NCBI GenBank assembly: GCA_963717505.1
Contig: OY970342.1
Span: 2,208,001 to 2,272,000 of the forward strand
Source: Candidatus Eiseniibacteriota bacterium
GTDB taxonomy: Bacteria; Eisenbacteria; RBG-16-71-46
Length of the DNA: 64,000 bases
Direction of reading: 5' to 3'
Below the pieces are notes generated by a model. That model was not told the DNA's origin and did no database searches. It worked only from the letters and a program-made list of their open reading frames with translations. Both the position numbers and the translations under genes were made by a program. Positions 35,157 to 48,831 of the stretch are shown one piece after another (positions within the stretch are counted from its first letter, which is position 1; each line of letters opens with the position of its first letter).

Positions 35157-36737
35157 ATGACCTCTGATTCCGAGCGATTGTCGCAACAGCTGATCGAATC
35201 CCTGCGAGCAGTGCTCTGCCAGGTGGCGGAGCCCGACGCGGTGCTCCGGGCCATCCTCGATCAGGCCGTCGCCTTCACGCAGGCCGAGCGTGGGCTGTTC
35301 GTCGAGGTTGCCGAGCAAGGGGAGATCGTCTATCGGGTGCTGCACGGTTTCGAGCCCAAGAACCTCGAGGGCGAGCGAGGCCGCTTCAGTCGCAATCTGT
35401 TCAAGCGGGTGCTGGAAGGCGGCACCGAGATCGTGATTGCCGACGCTCGAGATGACGTGTTCTATCAGGTGTTCGCGTCGTTCCGGGCCTTGCGCACTTC
35501 GTCGATCCTGTGCGTTCCGATCCGCACGTCCCGCGGCATCGCCGCGATCGTCCACCTCGAGCATCGCAGCATCGGGCACTTTGGACGCGATCACGTCCAG
35601 ATGCTGCAGTACCTCGTGGACCTTGCCGGCCCGGTGCTCGAATCGCTGAGGGCCGGACGCGAGATGATGCAGGAGCGCGATCGGCTGCGACTGTCCGAGA
35701 CGCAGTATCGCTCCGAGGCCGAGGAGAACCGGCGGTTGCTCGCGTCCGAATGGTCGTTCGGGCGCTTCGTCGGCCGCTCGGCGTCGGTGCGCAGCCTCGA
35801 GGACACCGTTCGCAAGGCCGCCGCAACCGACTTCCCCATCCTGATCCTGGGCGAGACCGGCACCGGCAAGAGCATTCTCGCGCGCGTGCTGCACTACGGT
35901 GGGCCCCGGGCCGCGGGGCCGCTGGTCACGGTGTTCTGCCCTTCGCTCGAACGCAGCATGGTCGAGCCCGAGCTGTTCGGCCACAAGCGTGGCGCGTTCA
36001 CCGGTGCGGTGAGCGATCGTCTGGGCAAGGTCCCGGCGGCCGAGAAGGGCACGCTGTTCCTCGACGAGATCGGGGAGCTGCCCCTGGAGATCCAGCCCAA
36101 GCTCTTACGACTCCTCCAGGAACGAACCTACGAGCGCATTGGCGAGGCCGAAGAGCGGCGCGCCGATGTTCGCGTGATCGCTGCCACCAACCGCGACCTC
36201 GAGGCGGAAGTGCGTGCGGGCCGATTTCGTCGCGACCTGTTCGAGCGCATTCACTACATCCCGATCCGGATCCCGCCCCTGCGCGAGCGGGTCGAGGACA
36301 TTCCGTTGCTGCTGCGCCACTCCCTGGATCAGACGGATTCCGGGCGCTGGATCGAGCCGTCGCCCGAGGTCTGCGATTACCTCAAGGGTCTGGCGTTCTC
36401 CTGGCCCGGGAACGTGCGCCATCTCGAACAACTGGCGGCGCGCATGACGATGGAGGGGTGGAAAGGAGCGGTTCGGGTCGACGACGTCGTCCGTCTGCTG
36501 GGTGCCGGCATCGCCGGCGAAGGCGAGCCACTTGCAGCTGGCGATGGGGAGCGTGTCGAACTCGACGCGGGGCTGCCCAGGCTCCTGGAAGCCGCGGAGC
36601 GCAAGTGGATCGAGGAGGCGATTCGTCGCTACCCCGACCTTACGCGCGCCGAGGTCGCCGCCAAGCTCAAGATCAGCGAGTCGGCGTTCTACAAGAAGCT
36701 TCGCCACCTTGGGCTGGGAGGGCCGGCCTCCACCTGA
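35157..36737 (+). CDS. GAF-domain sigma54-dependent enhancer-binding protein
   Basis: GAF-like N-terminus (AERG..SILCVPI); [43 protein letters not shown]-terminal HTH; TATAAT at 35087-35092. Confidence 0.92.
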
Positions 36738-38868: not shown

Positions 38869-40125
38869 ATGCAGGTTGAAGTCATCACCATCGGCAACGA
38901 AGTGTTGTCGGGCCGCACCCTCGACACCAACTTCGCGTGGCTGGCGCGCGCGCTCGAAGAAGTGAGCGTGCGCGTCGGTTGGCACTCGACCGTCGGCGAT
39001 TCGGCCGATCGGATCGGCGACGCGCTGCGCCGGGCACTCGATCGTGCCGACGCGGTGGTGACCACCGGCGGCCTCGGACCCACGCCCGACGACCTGACGC
39101 GCAAGGCCGTGGCCACCGTGCTCAGTCGTCCGCTGCGGCTCGACGAAGACGTGCTGCAGAGCATTCGCGAGCGGGTGAAGAAGTTCGGCCGTGCGATGCC
39201 GGCATCGGTCGAGGCCCAGGCGCTGCTGCCCAAAGGGGCGCAGGCGTGGCCAAACCGTCAGGGCACGGCCCCGGGGCTTCTGATTCTCGAGCGCGACAAG
39301 CCGCTGATTCTGCTCCCCGGCGTGCCCTACGAAATGGAAGGGCTCGCAAGCGAGTTCGTCGTGCCCTACCTGCGCGAGCGCGCCGGCCGGCGGGTGGAGG
39401 TATTCACGCTGCGCACCGCCGGTGTTGCCGAGAGTCATCTGCACGAGAAGATCGGTCCCATGCCGCAGACCTGGCCCGGTGCGGCACTCGCCTACCTGCC
39501 GAGCTTTTTTGGCGTCGACCTGCGCGTGACGGTGACCGGCGACGACCGGGCGCAGGTCGAAGCGGTCGCCGGGCGCGCCTACGACGAGCTGCGCGCGCGC
39601 GTGGCGTCGGTGATGTACGCCGAAGGCTCGACTCCGATCGAGCAGGTCGTGGCCGAGACGCTGATCGAGCAGGGACGAAAGCTGGCGGTGGCCGAGTCGT
39701 GCACCGGCGGGCTCATGGCCAAGCGCATCACCGATTTCTCGGGCTCGTCCAAGTACTTCGAGCGGGGCTTCGTGACCTATTCCAACGAGTCCAAGGTGCA
39801 ATTGCTCGGCGTGCGCGCCGAGGACATAGCCGCCCACGGCGCGGTGAGCGCGGTGGTCGCCGAGCAGATGGCGCGCGGTGCGGCGGAACGCGCGGGCGTC
39901 GAAGCCGGGGTCGGCATCACCGGCATCGCCGGGCCCGAGGGTGGCTCGGCCGAGAAGCCGGTGGGCACCGTGTTCATTGCCGTCCACACGCCGGGGGGCA
40001 CGGCGGTGCGGCCGTACCGCTTCGTCGGCACGCGCAACACGATTCGCGAGCGCGCGGCGCAGACCGCCCTCGACTTGCTCAGGCGGCACCTGAAGGGATT
40101 GCCGCTCGATCCGCGTCTCGGTTAG
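38869..40125 (+). CDS. cinA: Competence/damage-inducible protein A (MoCF-like + NMN deamidase PncC domains)
   Basis: IGNEVLSG..DTN, TGGLGPTPDDLT, GTAPG, LPGVPYEM, AESCTGG, YSNESK, GAVS, GIAGP. Confidence 0.95.
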   Translation: MQVEVITIGNEVLSGRTLDTNFAWLARALEEVSVRVGWHSTVGDSADRIGDALRRALDRADAVVTTGGLGPTPDDLTRKAVATVLSRPLRLDEDVLQSIRERVKKFGRAMPASVEAQALLPKGAQAWPNRQGTAPGLLILERDKPLILLPGVPYEMEGLASEFVVPYLRERAGRRVEVFTLRTAGVAESHLHEKIGPMPQTWPGAALAYLPSFFGVDLRVTVTGDDRAQVEAVAGRAYDELRARVASVMYAEGSTPIEQVVAETLIEQGRKLAVAESCTGGLMAKRITDFSGSSKYFERGFVTYSNESKVQLLGVRAEDIAAHGAVSAVVAEQMARGAAERAGVEAGVGITGIAGPEGGSAEKPVGTVFIAVHTPGGTAVRPYRFVGTRNTIRERAAQTALDLLRRHLKGLPLDPRLG

Positions 40126-40157
40126 GCCCATGCATTCGGCCGTGCGAGGTATGTGAC

Positions 40158-40757
40158 GTGGGTGAACCGAAGGCAGCGCACCGCGTGTTTCTCGCGGTGT
40201 TCCCGCCGGAAGGCGTACAGCGCGCCGCGCACGCCTTGGGCGAGTCGCTGCGGCGCGACGGTGACGGCGTGTCGTGGGTCAAGCGCGACAACCTGCACTA
40301 CACGATGCGTTTCATCGGCGATGTTGGCGACGACGGATTGCGACGCGTGGCCGAGGCCGCGGCGACCACTGCCGAGCGCCATGAGGCATTCGACGCCGAG
40401 CTGGGCGGCATCGGCGCGTTTCCGAACACAAGGAAGGCGCGCGTGATTTGGCTAGGGATGACGGCGGGCGAGCGGGCGATGATGGAACTCGGGCGCGACC
40501 TCGAGGCGGAACTCCGGCGGCGCGGATTCGAGAAGGCCGAGCGGCCGTTCACTCCGCACCTGACACTCGGGCGCGCGCGAGTGCCCGGCCGCGACTGGAC
40601 GGAGGAGCTGGAATTGGCACGAGTCGCAGGCGCGGTGCCACGCTTCCGAGTCGATCGGCTGCTGGTGGTCGAGAGTCAGTTGTCGCCAAAGGGATCGATT
40701 TACACGGTCAAGGGCGAGGGAAAGTTGGGAGTATCGGGCAGCCAGCCCGTGCGGTAA
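40158..40757 (+). CDS. thpR: RNA 2',3'-cyclic phosphodiesterase (2H family)
   Basis: RVFLAV, LHYTMRF, FTPHLTLGR (two HxT motifs); follows cinA. Confidence 0.9.
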   Translation: MGEPKAAHRVFLAVFPPEGVQRAAHALGESLRRDGDGVSWVKRDNLHYTMRFIGDVGDDGLRRVAEAAATTAERHEAFDAELGGIGAFPNTRKARVIWLGMTAGERAMMELGRDLEAELRRRGFEKAERPFTPHLTLGRARVPGRDWTEELELARVAGAVPRFRVDRLLVVESQLSPKGSIYTVKGEGKLGVSGSQPVR

Positions 40758-40766
40758 CCTCGTTGC

Positions 40767-42497
40767 ATGCCATTCGTCGCCCGTGCAATCGCGACGAGCC
40801 TCCTCGCTTCGTCCCTCGCGACACCGGTTGCGGCCGCCTGGCCGCCGCTCGGCGGCCTCGGCGTCACGGTGTGTGACACGACCGGCTTCCGAAATGGACT
40901 GGCTAGCGTCGGGGATGGTTCCGGCGGCGCCTATTTCATGTGGCTCGACTGGCGTGATGAGGCGAACCGACGGTTCTTCGCCCAACGCGTGAGTGGATCC
41001 GGCGTCGCGTTGTGGCTGGCCAACGGCATCTCGGTGGGCTCTACGATGGCGTTCATCCACCCTTCCGTTGGTGGCGGCCCCCCGGTCATCGTCAGCGACG
41101 ACCAAGGCGGCGCGCTCGTTCTTTGGAGCGACTTTCGCGCCGACACGGCCGGCAACCTCTATGCGCAGCGGCTCGCCCCCGACGGCACGCTGCTCTGGGG
41201 GCCGGACGCTGTTCCCGTGAATCTCGGGCCCCGCCACGAAGTCAGCTTCGTGGCCGAGAGCGATGGCGCGGGCGGGATGTTTGTGGTGTGGCGCGATGAC
41301 CGTGACAGCATTTTCACGACACGCGCGCAGCGGGTGGATGCGGCAGGCAGTCTGCTTTGGGGCGAGGACGGCGTCGTCGTGTGCCCCAACCATTTGTCGC
41401 AAACGAGTCAGAGGCTCGCATCGGACGGTTTGGGCGGCGCGCTGGTCGCCTGGACGGAGGTTCGGGGTGGCCAGATTCATGGGTTCGCTCAGCGATTGAA
41501 CGCAGGAGGCGAGCCGCAGTGGGCCACACTGGGCGTTCAACTCTCGACCTCGCCACACGGGACCTTCGTGAATGACATCGAAGCCGACGGTAGCGGCGGA
41601 ATGGTGGTCGCATGGCTCGACTATCGGTCGCTGAACACCTGGACACAGGCCTTTGCACAGCGGGTGACCGCAGACGGCAATGTCGCATGGGCTCCCGACG
41701 GCGTGAGCCTGAGCGGGACCACTTGGTACGTCAATGAGACGTTCGTGCTGGGTGACGGCAATGGCGGCGCGATCGTCGGGTGGCAGGACTACAGGAACAA
41801 CGGGTGGAATGCCGCTATGGCTCAACGACTCTCGCCGACGGGAGCGAAGCTGTGGACGCTGCCGGCGGTCGAAGTTGGGCAGAGTTTCGGCGGCAGCGGC
41901 GTCAACCAGGTGAGGATGCTCGCCGACGGCGCCGACGGAGCGGTGTTCGTATGGAATTCAGACGACGGCGGCGACGTTAGCGACGAATATTCCATTTACG
42001 CACAGCGGGTCGGTTCGACCGGTGCGCCGATCTGGTCGAGTGGCGGGGTGGTGCTCGCCTCCCTACACCGGCTCGCCGGCCAGTTGGTTGCGGTTCCAGA
42101 TGGCAGCGGAGGTGTGGTCGCCGGATGGCTCGACCAAGCCGGATTCGGGGGCCCGCCCAGATACGCGGCCCAACGCGTTGCGGGCAGTGGCACGTTGAGC
42201 GTGCCGCAACGTGAGGAGTCGAGTTTGACGCTGGCATGCGTGCCGACGCCCGCCCGCGCGAGCGAAGGCGTGGAATTGCGCCTTGCGCCGGTGGTGGGCT
42301 CGCGCGTTGGCGTGGGGATTTACGACCTCGGTGGACGGTTGGTGCGCTCGTTCGACGAGCCGATGGTCGGAGCCACGGGCCGGCTGCGATGGGACGGACG
42401 GGACGCTGAGGGCCGCTCGAGCCCGCCGGGCCTTTACTTTGTAACGGTGCGCTCGGGCATTGGGGTTGGCCGGGCGAGAATCGTGATCGTGGAGTAG
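40767..42497 (+). CDS. Secreted repeat protein (DGxGGAxVxWxDxR...YAQR...G...W repeats) with T9SS/FlgD-like C-terminal domain
   Basis: Signal peptide; about eight DG.GG repeats; IYDLGGRLVR..WDGRDAEGR..PGLYFV. Confidence 0.82.
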   Translation: MPFVARAIATSLLASSLATPVAAAWPPLGGLGVTVCDTTGFRNGLASVGDGSGGAYFMWLDWRDEANRRFFAQRVSGSGVALWLANGISVGSTMAFIHPSVGGGPPVIVSDDQGGALVLWSDFRADTAGNLYAQRLAPDGTLLWGPDAVPVNLGPRHEVSFVAESDGAGGMFVVWRDDRDSIFTTRAQRVDAAGSLLWGEDGVVVCPNHLSQTSQRLASDGLGGALVAWTEVRGGQIHGFAQRLNAGGEPQWATLGVQLSTSPHGTFVNDIEADGSGGMVVAWLDYRSLNTWTQAFAQRVTADGNVAWAPDGVSLSGTTWYVNETFVLGDGNGGAIVGWQDYRNNGWNAAMAQRLSPTGAKLWTLPAVEVGQSFGGSGVNQVRMLADGADGAVFVWNSDDGGDVSDEYSIYAQRVGSTGAPIWSSGGVVLASLHRLAGQLVAVPDGSGGVVAGWLDQAGFGGPPRYAAQRVAGSGTLSVPQREESSLTLACVPTPARASEGVELRLAPVVGSRVGVGIYDLGGRLVRSFDEPMVGATGRLRWDGRDAEGRSSPPGLYFVTVRSGIGVGRARIVIVE

Positions 42498-42534
42498 CCC
42501 CTAGGGCCTTCGGGCTCCGATCCGGTTTTTCCGC

Positions 42535-42563
42535 TTGCCCGCGGCCTGGGGTAGGCCTAGCCT
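42535..42563 (+). promoter_or_regulatory. Putative sigma70 promoter for the peptide/regulator unit
   Basis: TTGCCC-N17-TAGCCT. Confidence 0.4.
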
Positions 42564-42761
42564 TGACGGGCGTTCCGTTAGCCCCCGACCCCTAAGCCGG
42601 GATGCCACATGGCCGAATCCCCTCATCCCACACGGAACCTGTTCGCGACCCCATCGGGGCAGACTCGTGCTGCCCGGGCGGGGTCTCGGTTTCTTCCGGC
42701 GGCTCTGCCCCCGAAGCCGAGCCGCGCAGCACGGAGAGGGGATCTCCGAAGGAGCGAGGCG

Positions 42762-43052
42762 ATGAAGAAGCATGGCCGGCCGTGGTGGCTGGCGGTCGTG
42801 GTCGCGGTGGGGATGACCGTGATGGCGGCGGGGGTGGTGCAGGCGGGGCGGATCCCACTTCCGGAACGAGGTGGCTGGAAGTTGGGTGATCCGGATGATC
42901 CTCCGTCCCAGGTTCGACGGTCTCCTGCAATGGAAGTTGTGGTTCCTGTGGAAGGACGTCCGTACGGTGGACTTCTTCTGTGGCTCTCCAGGTGGGGTGT
43001 CTTGCCCAATCCAGTCTTGAAGAGGCTTGGTGAGAATGATCGTTGGCACTAA
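42762..43052 (+). CDS. Small secreted protein (96 aa): signal peptide + GDPDDP motif; candidate signalling propeptide
   Basis: AAGGAG/GAGG RBS; MKK..hydrophobic core..VQA cleavage site; overlaps the start of the TPR-sigma54 gene. Confidence 0.65.
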   Translation: MKKHGRPWWLAVVVAVGMTVMAAGVVQAGRIPLPERGGWKLGDPDDPPSQVRRSPAMEVVVPVEGRPYGGLLLWLSRWGVLPNPVLKRLGENDRWH

Positions 43053-45490
43053 GGCCCAAGTCAGCGCACTTCGCGAGCTGATCAGGTCCAATCATTGGTC
43101 AGCCGACAAGAGTGCAGTCGACGGGGCAGTTTTGGCTTGCAGCGAAGGACTCTGTGACCGCGGCGAACCCGAGGTCGCAATCGAGCTCATTACTGATTGG
43201 ACCGACCGAAACCCAATCGGGCTTGGGTCGGTCCAGCTAATGTCGACTTTGGCGCGGGCTCACCTCCTTCTGGCCCAGAATGACGATGCACTCCTCATTG
43301 TGAGGAGAGTCCAGAACGACATCGGTGATGAATTGGTACACAGTTCCGCTGAATCCGCGTACTTGCGAATCTGGGAGGGAGTAGCGCTGCGGGGCCTGAG
43401 TCGCACCGACGAATCGGAGTCGGTACTAATGGCGGTGCAAAGGGAACTCATTGCGAGGCCGGACTCGCGGGCACTGGGGACCTGCGCGTATCAGCTTGCA
43501 GCAACTCTTCTAGTTGGCGGCAATCGCGTTGCTGCCAAACGGTGGCTGTTGGACGCCATAGTGTCTGCCCGTCGTTGCCGCGATCCACTACTCGAGGCGA
43601 ACGCTTTGCTCGCCCTTGCGATGATTGAGAGATTCCATTGTCGCTGGCCCAACGCCATCGAGGCGGCGACTGAAGCGGCTACTCTGGCTCGGGGAATTGA
43701 TGGTGGCTTGGCGGAATGTCATTCGGCGAGAGCGCTGGCCATCACCGCTTGGAAGCGCGGGCGCCTAGAGGAGGCAGAAAGAGCCGCGGCTGCGTATCTG
43801 TCTGCAACGCGCAGTGCTGGAGCGCAAGACATCAAGTGGGAGCAGTTCGGCGCTCTGCTGATTGGAATGATTGCACTTCATGCCGGTCGGACTTCAGAGG
43901 CTGCTCTTGTGTTTGGATCGATCGATGGGCTGCCAACCGGGGGCCTTGAGTCCCGTCCGTCCCTCCTCACCTCCGAATTCCTCGGCGACGTCCATCTCGA
44001 ACAAGGCCAAGCCGCCGAAGCCCTGCGCTACTACGACGAAGTCTTCCCCAAAGCCATGGCGTTGGTGCCCAAGGGCGACATCGTCGCCGAGCTGCGCCGC
44101 CGCCGTGCCGAGTGCTACCTGCTCCTCGGCCGCAACGAAGACGCGTACGACGAAGCCAAGACCGGCCTCGAGCACTGTCGCGAGCTGGGCGATCGCTACG
44201 AAGAGGCGGCGACCTATCGCGTGCTGGCACTGAGTGCCGCGGCAATGGGCAACGCGACCGAGGCCCACCGCTGGTTCGAGCAGGGTTTCGCCTACTACGA
44301 CGACATCGAGACGCCGTACGAGTGGGGCAAGTTGTGGCTCGCGTACGGCGATTGGCTCATCGGACCGAATGCCGGCGAGTACACGAACGCCGCTTCGGCG
44401 CACGAAGCCTGGCACGCGGCGCGCGACCACTTCGAGCGCATGGGAGCCAAGGCCAAGCTGGCCGAAGCCGAGGCTCGCATCGCCACCATCCCGGCGGCGC
44501 GCGCTGCGACGAACAGCCACCCACGCCGCCGCCCGCGGGGAACCGCCGAGATCGAGCGGCGATCAAACTGGGGGTTCGAGACTTTCGGCCTGGTCACCGA
44601 ACACCGGCCGATGCTCCATTTGCTCGAGCAGGTCGCGAAGCTCGCCAAGTCGCAACTCGCCGGTGCTGATTCTCGGCGAATCGGGAACCGGCAAGGAGCT
44701 GATCGCCCACGGCATCCACAAGCTCTCGGTGCGCGCGGGCACGTTCATGCCCATCAACTGCGCCGCCCTGCCGCGTGAGGTGATCGAGAGCGAGCTGTTC
44801 GGCTACGTCGCCGGTGCTTTCACCGGCGCAACGCGCGAGAAGGCGGGGCTCCTCGAAGTCTGCCAGGACGGCACCGTGTTTCTCGACGAGATCGGGGAGA
44901 TGCCGTTCGAGCTTCAGGCGCGCCTCCTGCGATTCCTCGAGACCGGCGAGCTGCGTCGCGTGGGTGCGACGCGCAACCTCAAGGTGCAGACGCGGGTCGT
45001 TGCAGCGACCAATCGCGATCAATTGGCGCTCGAGAAGGGCGAACACCTGCGGCGCGACCTCTACTACCGTCTCGCGCACGGAGTGGTGGCGCTCCCGCCG
45101 CTCCGGCAGCGCGGCGACGACATCGGGCTGCTGATCGCCCACTTCCTCGACGAAGCATGCGCCGAAGCGGGGCGCGAAGTTCGGCTGAGCCTCGAGGCCG
45201 AAGAGATTCTGCGCGAGCACTCGTGGCCTGGGAACGTTCGTGAGCTGAAGGGCGTGCTCCAGCGCCTCGTGATCTTTGCGGTGGATGGGCACGAGATCAC
45301 TCCCGCCGAGCTGGAGCTGGGTACGGCCACCGCTCCCTCGACGCTGCTCGAGGAACTGGCCGAAAGCGAGAAGTTGCGAATCGCTGAAGCACTCAAGCAG
45401 GCCCGGAACTCCCGGACCGACGCGGCCAAAGCACTTGGAATTCCCCGAACGACTCTGCTCAACAAGATGAAGCGTTACGGGCTGAGTTGA
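43036..45490 (+). CDS. TPR-repeat sigma54-dependent activator, split by a +1 frameshift at about 44653
   Basis: Frame 1 gives TPR-like helical repeats up to AKLAKS; frame 2 continues NSPVLILGESGTGKE, ELFGYVAGAFTGA, FLDEIGE, AATNR, WPGNVREL, AAKALGIPRTTL. May be a sequencing error or a pseudogene. Confidence 0.88.
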
Positions 45491-45521
45491 GTTCGACATC
45501 CGGCCGCAGCGGGAGGGAGCC

Positions 45522-47570
45522 TTGAAGCAGTTTCTATCGGCTCTGATGGGAGCTGCTGTGTTGGTGCCGTGGCTGACCGCCACGTCGGCGGGCGCAGCGT
45601 GTCCGGGGATCGATCTTCTTGGCCAGCCCTCTTTCTACTTCGTTGGCGAGAATCCTTTTCACACGATAGTTGCTGACTTCAACGGCGACGACATTCAGGA
45701 TTTGGCAGTCACCGTAAATGGCACGAGCCACATCGGCATCCTGATCGGTCAAGGAGACGGAACTTTCGAGAACGTGGTTCTTTACTCAGTGCTGCCGGGA
45801 AGCGGCCACCTTGTGGCCAAGGATTTCAACCTCGATGGATACCTGGATATCGCCACGAACAGCGGGGCGACGAACTCCATCACCGTGCTTCCTGGCAACG
45901 GCGATGGCACATTCGCCGCTCCTTCATCTGTTCCGGTGCACGGCCAGGCGCCCTACGGAGTCACGAGTGGCGATTTCAACAACGACGGCATCCCCGATCT
46001 GGCTTCTGCCGACCTTCTCTCCGACGCGGTCTCCGTGATCCTCGGTCAGCCCGGCGGTGGATTCTCGGCGCCCTTGAGTTTCGGCGCCGGTGTCCACCCG
46101 TACGACATCCAGACCGGCGATTTCAACGAGGACGGAAATGCCGACTTGGTGGTCTCGAATCAAAACAGCCAGAATATTTCGATTCTGCGCGGGGTGGGCG
46201 ACGGCACGTTCGACAATACGCTGAACTACCCGGTGGGGATCTATCCGTACAAGATCGCGCTCGGGGACGTCAACGGCGACGGCACCTTGGACCTCGCGGT
46301 AGCCAACGGTGGCAACGCGACACTCACGATTGTCAGGGGCAACGGTAGCGGCGGTGTTGGGAACGGGACCTTCGCTCAGCCTCTCCACGTCTACGCGGGA
46401 GGCGTGCCGCGCAGCGTCAGCATCGGGTTTTTCGACGACGACCCGATCCTCGACCTCGTGGTTGCCGATTCCGATGGCACCGTAGGGATTCTGACTGGTT
46501 TCGGGAACGGCCTCTTCCTGGGTCCCTACACTTTTCGGGTTGGCGGGCACCCTACGGATGTTGCCGTCGGGGATTTCAATGGCGATTTGAAGCTTGACGT
46601 GGCAGTTGTGCGGTACCCCGAATCGATGGAAATCGCGATTCTGCTGAACCAGTGCGACAATCCGCCGCCCGGTCCCGAGCCGGTCCTGACTGAGGTGCGC
46701 GACGTTCAGAACGACCAAGGCAAACGCGTACTCCTCTTGTGGCAACGCAGCGCGCTCGATTTGCCTGGGTACTCAACGATCACCGGCTATCGCGTTTGGC
46801 GCCTCAACGGAACGACCGCCATTTGGGAGGAGCAGGCCACTGTGCCCGCGGTGCAGCTCCCAGAATATAGCTTTGAGGCTGCGACCACCCAGGACTCTTT
46901 GTCCTCGAGCAACCCCTACACGGCCTTCTTCATCTCAGCACTCACCACCGACCCCGACACGTTCTACGAATCCAACGTCGACAGTGGCTACTCAATAGAC
47001 AATCTGCCGCCGGACGCCCCAGTAGGATTGAGCGCCATCACCACGGCGGGTGGGGTAGAGCTGACGTGGACGCCGAACTCCGAAGAAGACCTGGATGGCT
47101 ATCATGTCTATCGCGGGCTGACACCCGACTTCGTGCCAGGTCCCGGGAGTCTGATCGGTCCTTCCACGATCACGACGTTCGTCGACTCAGAGGGCAATTC
47201 CTCGCACTTCTACAAAGTCACCGCAATCGACTCCCAGGGCAACGAGGGTTCAACGGCGCTCGCGGCCGCCGGTCCGTACACCGGAGTAGGCGATGCCCCA
47301 TTCTTGTTCGCCCTGCGCGGCGCGATGCCCAACCCTTCGCGTGACGGCAGGTTCTCGGTCTCGTTCAGCCTGGCGAATTCGTCTCCGGCAAAGATCGAGT
47401 TGATCGATGCCGCGGGACGGCGAGTTCTCGAGAAAGCCCTTCACGGACTCGGCGCCGGGACGCACACGATCGACCTGGGGCGGCAGCGGTCGCTCCCCGA
47501 GGGGCTCTACGTCTTGCGTCTGTCGCAGGCAGGAAGTGCGGCTTCGTCGAAGGTCGTGGTCCTGAAGTAG
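45522..47570 (+). CDS. Secreted FG-GAP/VCBS repeat protein with FN3-like domain and T9SS-like C-terminal domain
   Basis: GGAGG RBS, TTG start; DFNxDGxxD repeats; [14 protein letters not shown]; [19 protein letters not shown]; [19 protein letters not shown]. Confidence 0.87.
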
Positions 47571-47595
47571 GCGGGCGACCGCTCCAGACGCCCTC

Positions 47596-47623
47596 TTGAC
47601 GCCAGTGCACATCCGTGTATCAT
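47596..47623 (+). promoter_or_regulatory. recA promoter with an overlapping candidate SOS box
   Basis: TTGACG-N16-TATCAT; TGCAC-ATCC-GTGTA at 47606-47619. Confidence 0.6.
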
Positions 47624-47691
47624 GGCGCCACCCGAAGGAACGGGACCCCGTCCCGGCACATGACGAAGCCCCTGCGAAGGAGACGCAGACC

Positions 47692-48831
<1,140 letters not shown>

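Follow-up and report, generated by a model that had tools for sequence, protein, structure and literature searches.

A two-gene module was analysed in a 64,000-nucleotide stretch of DNA (here called the window and numbered from its first base) of a Candidatus Eiseniibacteriota bacterium (GenBank assembly GCA_963717505.1, contig OY970342.1, positions 2,208,001 to 2,272,000 of the forward strand). The module comprises a small open reading frame (ORF) at 42762-43052 and, behind it on the same (+) strand, the gene of a sigma54-type transcription activator whose N-terminal part is built of tetratricopeptide repeats (TPR). The small ORF encodes 96 amino acids followed by a stop codon. Its first 28 residues (42762-42845) resemble a signal peptide, with a basic N-terminus, a hydrophobic core (best 11-residue Kyte-Doolittle mean 2.65) and VQA at the end; all signal-peptide calls in this work come from a heuristic combining hydrophobicity and charge, not from a dedicated predictor. 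A pro-region leads to a GDPD motif (residues 42-45, 42885-42896; GDPDDP at residues 42-47), after which a variable basic tail containing a weakly hydrophobic stretch extends from 42897 to 43049. A Shine-Dalgarno sequence, GAAGGAG, is located at 42748-42754, 7 nt 5′ of the ATG. The start of the regulator was placed at the ATG at 43036 because the N-termini of the orthologues align from there, and with this start the two genes overlap by 17 nt. The small ORF, its ribosome-binding site, signal-like N-terminus, motif and tail, and the overlap had all been described in an earlier note on this stretch, and each was confirmed. The sequencing runs listed as containing the stretch were seven DNA runs, with shares of at most 0.21, and no RNA run.

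The TPR part of the regulator is read in a frame extending from 43027 or 43036 to a stop codon at 44778. Residues 1 to about 295 (43036-43920) form the hypervariable N-terminal half of a TPR solenoid, as judged by identity profiles, an all-helical model and the G+C content at third codon positions (GC3), and residues from about 300 to 540 (43933-44655) form a conserved TPR core, matched by TPR_12, together with the linker to the AAA+ domain; the invariant columns cluster from residue 282 on. An AAA+ sigma54-interaction domain with Walker A and GAFTGA motifs, an AAA lid and a Fis-type helix-turn-helix (HTH) follow at 44660-45490, shifted by +1 from the frame of the TPR part; this second frame is open from 44234, and homology in it begins at about 44660. 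Pfam searches returned only TPR families for the N-terminal part, followed by Sigma54_activat (PF00158, 6.5e-56, the match starting only at profile position 20), AAA_lid_14 and HTH_8 (2.2e-10), and neither a receiver nor a GAF domain was found by Pfam in the window regulator. Both GAFTGA and GESGTGKE are readable, and the protein thus has the features of a sigma54 activator (bacterial enhancer-binding protein). The two frames meet at a break just 5′ of Walker A (44650-44662), where the window has one extra base in comparison with the orthologues, and all 13 orthologues compared pass this point in a single frame, reading '...AKLAxSxxP-L-LGESGTGK'. The domain composition proposed in the earlier note, a TPR-like N-terminus joined to a GAFTGA AAA+/HTH module and lacking receiver and GAF domains, was retained; the note did not mention that the assembly carries the gene in two frames.

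The pairing of such an activator with a small ORF is recurrent. Loci were screened for an ORF of 45-230 amino acids ending no more than 400 nt from the open frame of the regulator and having a basic N-terminus, a hydrophobic core and the motif G[DE]P[DEV]. The source genome has three TPR-sigma54 activators among its 27 AAA+ matches, and all three are directly preceded by a signal-peptide ORF with G[DE]PD. The survey of relatives covered 41 genomes from six families of one class, with TPR-domain matches in all 41, and 98 matching clusters were retrieved from it, a number that excludes two additional sites of the unpublished genome G026; removal of one duplicate and of seven clusters at contig ends left 90 evaluable loci. 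The recurrence anticipated in the earlier note was found at 77 of these 90 loci, and at 75 the motif is the strict form G[DE]PD. Eight more loci have an ORF with a variant motif (SEPD, GGPDEP, GGPDDPDD, GDSDQY or GDADKV) and four of the remaining five a degraded or mis-started copy, so that with variants included the small ORF is represented at 89 of the 90 loci and is absent only at locus L098. One of the 77 positives (L028) comes from G026, which also contributes to the tallies of the 41-genome survey and of the phylum-wide profile search; the alignments and models were made without that genome. When the same screen was applied as a control to the source genome, 9 of 1977 open frames of at least 500 amino acids were positive, three of these nine being the TPR activators themselves, and none of its 24 non-TPR sigma54 activators was. 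In a species-representative collection, 53 loci related to the window type were found, 37 of which had enough upstream DNA; the screen was positive at 31 of the 37, and three more were recognised by eye as a GDPxD variant or a degraded copy.

The regulators fall into three paralogue classes, assigned by the best BLASTP match to three references among the 73 regulators of at least 700 amino acids (class A, 10; class B, 33; class C, 30). Class A, to which the window belongs, has the TPR-AAA+-HTH architecture and a length of about 820-850 amino acids; class B has the same architecture in about 800-840 (800 in the source genome), and class C carries an extra GAF domain and measures about 1030-1090 (1052 in the source genome). 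Class A orthologues (E <= 1e-70) were found in 16 of 24 relatives of the same family and in none of 16 genomes of other families, and classes B and C reach further. In the genomes inspected classes B and C are syntenic, with the gene of CysRS upstream of class B and that of Ppx/GppA upstream of class C in the source genome. The contexts of class A are unrelated to one another, their flanks beyond −250 being unalignable. In class A the small ORF is open up to the regulator start in 21 of 21 modules despite unrelated tails, with an estimated chance of about 0.34 per locus. Fourteen of the 21 modules show an overlap of 4 or 8 nt between its stop and the regulator start.

The small proteins form a family of their own. 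A profile of 21 members retrieved 280 representative clusters at E <= 1e-3, of about 90-130 amino acids, and 23 more in a word-indexed collection, while ten members examined with Pfam and NCBIfam gave nothing above the cut-off. The motif G[DE]PD is present in 162 of the 169 family sequences retrieved; in the alignments G42 and P44 are invariant and D45 is kept in 90% or more. The family logo reads [P/G][P/G]xx-G-D/E-P-D-x-P-x-G, with acidic residues before the motif and Arg-rich sequence after it. In classes B and C the C-terminal helix is conserved and W/R-rich and often finishes in aromatic-x-basic-Phe; for the class B tails the counts of such ends among the 169 are LRF and FRF (18 each), FHF (8) and IRF (7). 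The GDPD motif, whose recurrence the earlier note proposed to check, is conserved, but the note's placement of the processed peptide around GDPDDP is not supported: the motif is invariant and stands at the border of the variable part, so a specificity-carrying peptide, if there is one, would lie after it. Two other features of the C-terminal part were considered and rejected, namely a PEP-CTERM-type or other C-terminal sorting signal (no NCBIfam match above the cut-off in 10 members) and a two-transmembrane hairpin topology (the second hydrophobic stretch being mostly too weak). Behind the motif, the maximum hydrophobicity over 17 residues has a median of 1.0, a value of 1.6 being reached in no more than 13% of sequences.

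The profile was positive in 83 of 201 sampled genomes of the phylum, chiefly in families f1 (65 of 86), f3 (9 of 9) and f2 (2 of 3), and in none from eleven other families; absence is to be taken as soft here, as the six-frame profile search misses true copies (genomes G011, G020 and G021 gave no match although the ORF is present). The matches in the ESM Atlas belong to Eiseniibacteriota clusters only, and the source names and taxon labels encountered are all Candidatus Eisenbacteria or Eiseniibacteriota, except for 4 of 53 genome records. These four loci (L136, L173, L175 and L176), labelled Limnocylindria, Methylomirabilota, Udaeobacter or Verrucomicrobiia, all stem from third-party assemblies and show 42-50% identity to the window TPR region, as do Eisenbacteria loci; mis-binning or mislabelling is likely.

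Among close relatives within class A, the N-terminal half of the small protein is common, and the tails after GDPD are unrelated. In six pairwise DNA comparisons, identity between about −250 and the motif was 64-100%, depending on the pair (100% in L117/L118); over the stretch that follows the motif and ends near +1180 it was about 40-55%, and thereafter 80-100%. The clearest case is that of loci L117 and L118, which come from one metagenome bin: identity is 97-100% from about −210 to +60, falls through 85% at +63 to 28-62% between about +93 and +1150, rises through 75-83% at +1148 to +1178 and mostly reaches 88-100% between +1208 and about +1690. This three-part pattern is repeated in five other pairs, drawn from four genera, one of them being copies on a 0.9-Mb and a 1.2-Mb contig of one genome. 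The left border of the divergent block is the GDPD motif (at 45-nt resolution) and the right border a block of conserved, partly charged residues common to the three classes. Of these, R305, E312, D346 and E350 (L002 numbering) are shared by 69 of the 69 class A, B and C regulators, and P343, G345, R354, D384, E387 and R393 are kept in 94-99% of them. At the protein level, the mean pairwise identity is 20-37% for regulator residues 1-300 versus about 60% for residues 301-450, a step present in class A only, and in all 29 pairs with a conserved TPR part at least 70% identical the N-terminal identity is only 0.30-0.68. The base composition follows the same borders: GC3 is 0.81-0.82 on either side of the block and drops to 0.61 within the tail and to 0.63 over codons 1-290 of the regulator. 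These comparisons indicate that one cassette spans both genes and comprises the tail of the small protein and the first ~300 residues of the regulator. Co-inheritance of the two halves is visible in one triad, in which the cassette of L117 is nearer to that of L004 (tail 0.42, N-terminal TPR part 0.52-0.74) and its flanks are nearer to those of L118 (0.94-0.95). Such a pherotype-like cassette fits a cognate ligand/receptor pair.

An AlphaFold2 model of the TPR region gave, with good confidence, an all-helical solenoid of about 26 helices (pLDDT 87, pTM 0.81). The nearest solved folds in a Foldseek search are TPR superhelices holding extended peptides in their channel, namely LGN/Pins (with NuMA, Inscuteable or Frmpd) and TONSOKU (with the H3 tail); MalT appeared at rank 38 with its sensor domain III (TM score 0.76 on the target), and no RRNPP chain was among the top matches listed. 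Sequence-profile searches matched LGN, kinesin light chain, PH0952 and AfsR, as well as NprR and RapJ/F at E-values of 6e-6 to 4e-3. The likeness of the sensor is that of generic TPR proteins and not one of RRNPP membership.

From these data, the small protein and the regulator may be read as a cognate ligand/sensor pair that gates sigma54 transcription, most probably among the routes considered by RRNPP-like export, cutting and re-import; this reading is put forward tentatively, as the leading one and with somewhat less than an even chance of being right. The module and its leader would supply a Sec-type pro-protein translationally coupled to a sigma54 activator with a TPR sensor of about 540 residues. 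The invariant GDPDxPxG would dock on, or be processed beside, a part common to all copies, the candidates being the conserved charged TPR core or a common processing enzyme, and the variable basic tail would be recognised by the variable N-terminal TPR half. Occupancy of the TPR sensor would then release or impose control of AAA+ oligomerisation and in this way gate sigma54 transcription. On the RRNPP-like route the pro-protein would be exported and cut near GDPD, and the tail fragment would be taken up again and bound by the cytoplasmic TPR sensor; genes for SBP_bac_5 peptide-binding proteins, which would be needed for uptake and are not specific to it, exist in the genome. Distinct cassettes might represent private channels (pherotypes). 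This route was ranked first because class A is accessory, variable in copy number and non-syntenic and has deeply diverged cassettes between near-identical flanks. The fuller picture of an Eisenbacteria peptide pheromone system, with a Sec-exported pro-peptide, a TPR-sigma54 AAA+ receptor and exchangeable pherotype cassettes, is possible and more doubtful. The data themselves establish the conserved pairing in a self-contained module, the motif, the tight coupling, the domain composition and, in class A, the hypervariable block common to both genes between recombining conserved flanks; binding, export, cleavage, re-import and the sign of the regulation are what we infer, and so is a role in quorum or kin sensing.

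Several observations weigh against the leading reading. A diderm cell would have to pass the peptide across two membranes twice, and the pro-peptides are long (86-135 amino acids) and stand upstream of the receptor, unlike those of typical RRNPP pairs. Classes B and C share the pairing but have no hypervariable cassette, showing a conserved W/R-rich C-terminus instead, and for this reason pherotype logic cannot be general; these two classes may work somewhat differently from class A. The class A tail lacks a coding-type GC3 signal (0.61 versus 0.81 before the motif) and might therefore be no more than a spacer under no constraint, in which the frame stays open for the sake of coupling alone. 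The co-variation of peptide and TPR domain, which the earlier note proposed to test, is weak at the level of residues, with a rho of 0.40 (p 0.03) in 29 close pairs and of about 0.1 over 210, the pairs being non-independent. Since L117 and L118 come from a single bin, they might be two strains, and the regulator of the window itself is broken as assembled.

Some of these points are met by a different use of the same pair. The small protein could bind the TPR sensor in the cytoplasm before export and be removed from it by Sec export, so that the activator reports export capacity or the state of the envelope, and co-diversification would then insulate paralogous pairs within one cell. The logic resembles that of FlgM/sigma28 and of the TPR chaperones of type III secretion systems, which act as co-activators once their substrate is secreted. 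Such secretion-coupled control makes re-import in a diderm unnecessary; the translational coupling would match the amounts of the two proteins, several paralogous pairs occur per genome, envelope genes lie behind class C (fn3, DUF4384, UPF0164 and an HtrA-type PDZ protease), and class B proteins have aromatic-x-basic-Phe ends, which recall the C-termini of outer-membrane proteins. However, deeply diverged cassettes shuffled between near-identical flanks go beyond what would be required to insulate two or three paralogues, a 96-residue protein is normally exported fast by Sec, and the invariant GDPD would have no obvious role. It is regarded as a serious minority explanation, with perhaps one chance in a handful or slightly better. 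The overlaps of 4-8 nt, the flat G+C content by codon position in the class A tail, the weak co-variation and the candidate regulatory RNA elements already present in the class A leader agree with the absence of any contact between the two proteins. The small ORF would in that case be an envelope protein or a leader ORF that sets the translation of the activator by termination-reinitiation, and its variability would reflect relaxed constraint and recombination. Against this, the variable block continues past the small ORF through 300 structured sensor residues and ends sharply at the conserved core; relaxed constraint cannot yield saturated divergence beside 100% identical flanks; GDPD and, in classes B and C, a C-terminal helix are strongly conserved as protein; and the pairing has been kept across three old paralogue classes. 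This explanation is accordingly considered unlikely.

A signal-bearing ORF directly upstream of, and overlapping, the gene it controls also calls to mind monitoring substrates of the SecM/VemP/MifM type, in which the nascent chain stalls the ribosome at its C-terminus, export relieves the stall and downstream translation is controlled. The conserved W/R-rich extreme C-terminus of classes B and C would suit such a role, but in class A the C-termini share no conserved motif whatever, the only motif common to all classes lies in the middle of the protein and the downstream gene encodes a transcription activator instead of Sec or YidC machinery; a monitoring substrate is thus quite improbable. Finally, long overlapping open frames occur on both strands of the region, and in a genome of 68% G+C the small ORF might have been a chance open frame. 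With a background of 0.3-0.5%, the recurrence of the ORF with a conserved motif, position and length excludes this for practical purposes.

The module works most like the RRNPP pairs and its polymorphism is most like that of ComQXPA, and it is a member of neither group. The RRNPP pairs (Rap/Phr, NprR/NprX, PlcR/PapR and AimR/AimP) are defined in PMC10075063, which describes cytoplasmic TPR receptors for secreted peptides as a speciality of Firmicutes and their phages. The present module shares with them a TPR receptor beside a small ORF with a (here predicted) secretion signal, a propeptide with a conserved N-terminal and a variable C-terminal part, cassettes that diversify, and weak profile matches to NprR, RapJ and RapF. 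It differs from them in that its output is a sigma54 AAA+ activator and not an HTH alone or a phosphatase/anti-activator, its receptor has about 540 residues of TPR and about 280 of AAA+/HTH, its propeptide of 86-135 residues is encoded upstream with a stop/start overlap, and its host belongs to a diderm candidate phylum instead of the Firmicutes or their phages. Specific homology to Rap, NprR, PlcR, PrgX or AimR was not found, generic TPR proteins scoring better.

ComQXPA has one contiguous hypervariable block, with conserved sequence on both sides, that takes in the signal gene together with the neighbouring sensor portion of the receptor gene. PMC4408185 presents ComQXPA as a pherotype locus of Bacillus. 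The class A cassette likewise covers the tail of the candidate signal and the adjoining half of the putative receptor domain between conserved flanks, but the ComQXPA proteins are unrelated (isoprenylated ComX and a histidine kinase receptor), sensing there is extracellular and neither TPR nor sigma54 is involved. Sigma54 AAA+ activators set by a separately encoded small partner are also known, as in PspA-PspF and HrpV/HrpG-HrpS; the partners in those systems target the AAA+ domain and are not known to be exported by Sec, and their activators are not known to carry a TPR sensor. The STAND regulators (MalT, AfsR, PH0952) resemble the window regulator in joining a long TPR/SUPR sensor to a DNA-binding domain and to an ATPase that oligomerises, and the Pfam model TPR_MalT matches the class C paralogue. 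In the present family, however, the sensor is N-terminal instead of C-terminal and the ATPase is of the sigma54 AAA+ type instead of NOD, and we know of no small-protein ligand of MalT. The monitoring substrates SecM, VemP and MifM feedback-regulate the genes of the Sec or YidC machinery, according to PMC7897499 and bioRxiv 10.1101/2023.09.02.556018. As in the module, an upstream ORF that bears a signal is coupled to the next gene, but the downstream gene here does not belong to the secretion machinery, and a conserved arrest motif is lacking in class A.

Apart from its unusual sensor, the activator is a normal representative of the sigma54 enhancer-binding family. Sigma54 activators are known to sense through receiver, GAF, PAS and similar domains. 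In the literature searched, which did not include subscription journals and supplements, neither a TPR-sensor sigma54 activator with an exported mini-protein partner nor functional work on Eisenbacteria regulators was found. The family described here is one of sigma54 activators with a TPR sensor, regularly partnered with an uncharacterised mini-protein that is predicted to be exported. If the two partners bind, the pair would constitute a new input mode for sigma54 transcription and, for an uncultured soil phylum, a candidate system of communication or of envelope sensing. It would also offer a small unit of two genes, with orthogonal variants occurring in nature, that could be tested in E. 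coli by means of synthetic peptides. If the pheromone reading is true, no earlier case of RRNPP-style peptide signalling through private channels would exist in a diderm phylum, nor one connected to sigma54.

The region between the promoter-like box and the small ORF (42563-42761, + strand) corresponds to a conserved class A 5′ leader, recognised by conserved blocks in the alignments. The box itself, of sigma70 type, lies at 42535-42562 (+ strand; TTGCCC, 16 nt, CTAGCC) and was aligned with a class A consensus, cgTTGACcc-N17-TAg, derived from 20 class A upstream regions; the window −35 element matches this consensus poorly, and the box in the window is of low confidence. A sigma70 scan of 42000-46000 returned 0 sites, and the sigma54 promoter consensus gave 91 matches in the window versus 98.75 expected, none of them placed before the module or its neighbours. 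Within the leader (+ strand) there is an upstream ATG at 42609 with a CCCCUC box, reading M-x-x-S-P-H/R-P in its own frame, and a terminator-like hairpin at 42644-42688 followed by a U-rich run to 42697, then by a second hairpin and by a GGAG-loop-CUCC hairpin before the Shine-Dalgarno sequence. The terminator-like hairpin is retained by RNAalifold with compensatory changes in 7 of 9 pairs, and a sequence scan flags 42674-42689. The GGAG/CUCC hairpin is found in 11 of 21 class A leaders and a strong Shine-Dalgarno sequence in all 21. The single-sequence fold has a z-score of −1.42, which is not significant alone, and Rfam searches of 42400-43100 gave chance-level matches only. The class A leader may be an attenuator or an RNA switch. 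An N-terminal extension of the small ORF from the conserved upstream ATG was rejected, as this ATG is in frame at only 2 of 15 loci. About 250 nt of leader-like sequence also precede class A small ORFs elsewhere, for example at L002:954-1201 and L003:915-1162. At L104:1174-2017 (genome G044) the small ORF is present twice, in near-identical copies at a distance of 526 nt, and behind the first copy come about 25 codons of a regulator start; either a tandem duplication within a class A module or an assembly artefact would account for this arrangement.

The frameshift of the window regulator is probably an assembly error, and decay of the sigma54 system is possible as an alternative cause of the frame breaks. 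The source genome is a single 4.16-Mb contig, yet it scored as only 86.7% complete. It encodes sigma54 (Sigma54_DBD at G000:C1:3872746-3873223, where G000 denotes the source genome), and this gene too is split over two frames. In all, the window regulator, rpoN (G000:C1:3873095-3873099) and two more of the 27 sigma54 activators (near G000:C1:3980416-3980421 and 2994704-2994733) are so split, and an extra C before G is seen at 3 of the 4 break sites, twice within CCGAG. The genes rpoB, gyrA and secA were found intact in the same genome by family searches. The shared pattern of breaks points either to a systematic assembly error or to early decay of the sigma54 system. Public contigs covering 44620-44700 at high identity were not found, the only matches being conserved AAA+ segments with 4-7 differences on short, low-depth contigs.

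In the window, the module and two flanking secreted-protein genes occupy 38869-48831, between cinA-thpR and recA. The flanking genes encode a 576-residue protein with a weak FlgD_ig C-terminus and a 682-residue FG-GAP protein with a sorting domain of the type IX secretion system (T9SS), and neither the FlgD_ig nor the FG-GAP/T9SS gene was found beside class A orthologues. The G+C content of 38869-48831 is 0.56-0.62 versus 0.68 for the genome, suggesting that a conserved neighbourhood has received an insertion. The class C module of the source genome is followed on the same strand (locus L103, G000:C1:482500-490600) by genes for fn3, DUF4384 and UPF0164 (outer-membrane-like) proteins and for an HtrA-type protease with two PDZ domains, an envelope theme that may hint at the regulon. 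A further sigma54-type AAA+ match, covering query residues 1-205 only, is located about 7 kb upstream of the module at G000:C1:2243835-2244452 (window ~35835-36452).

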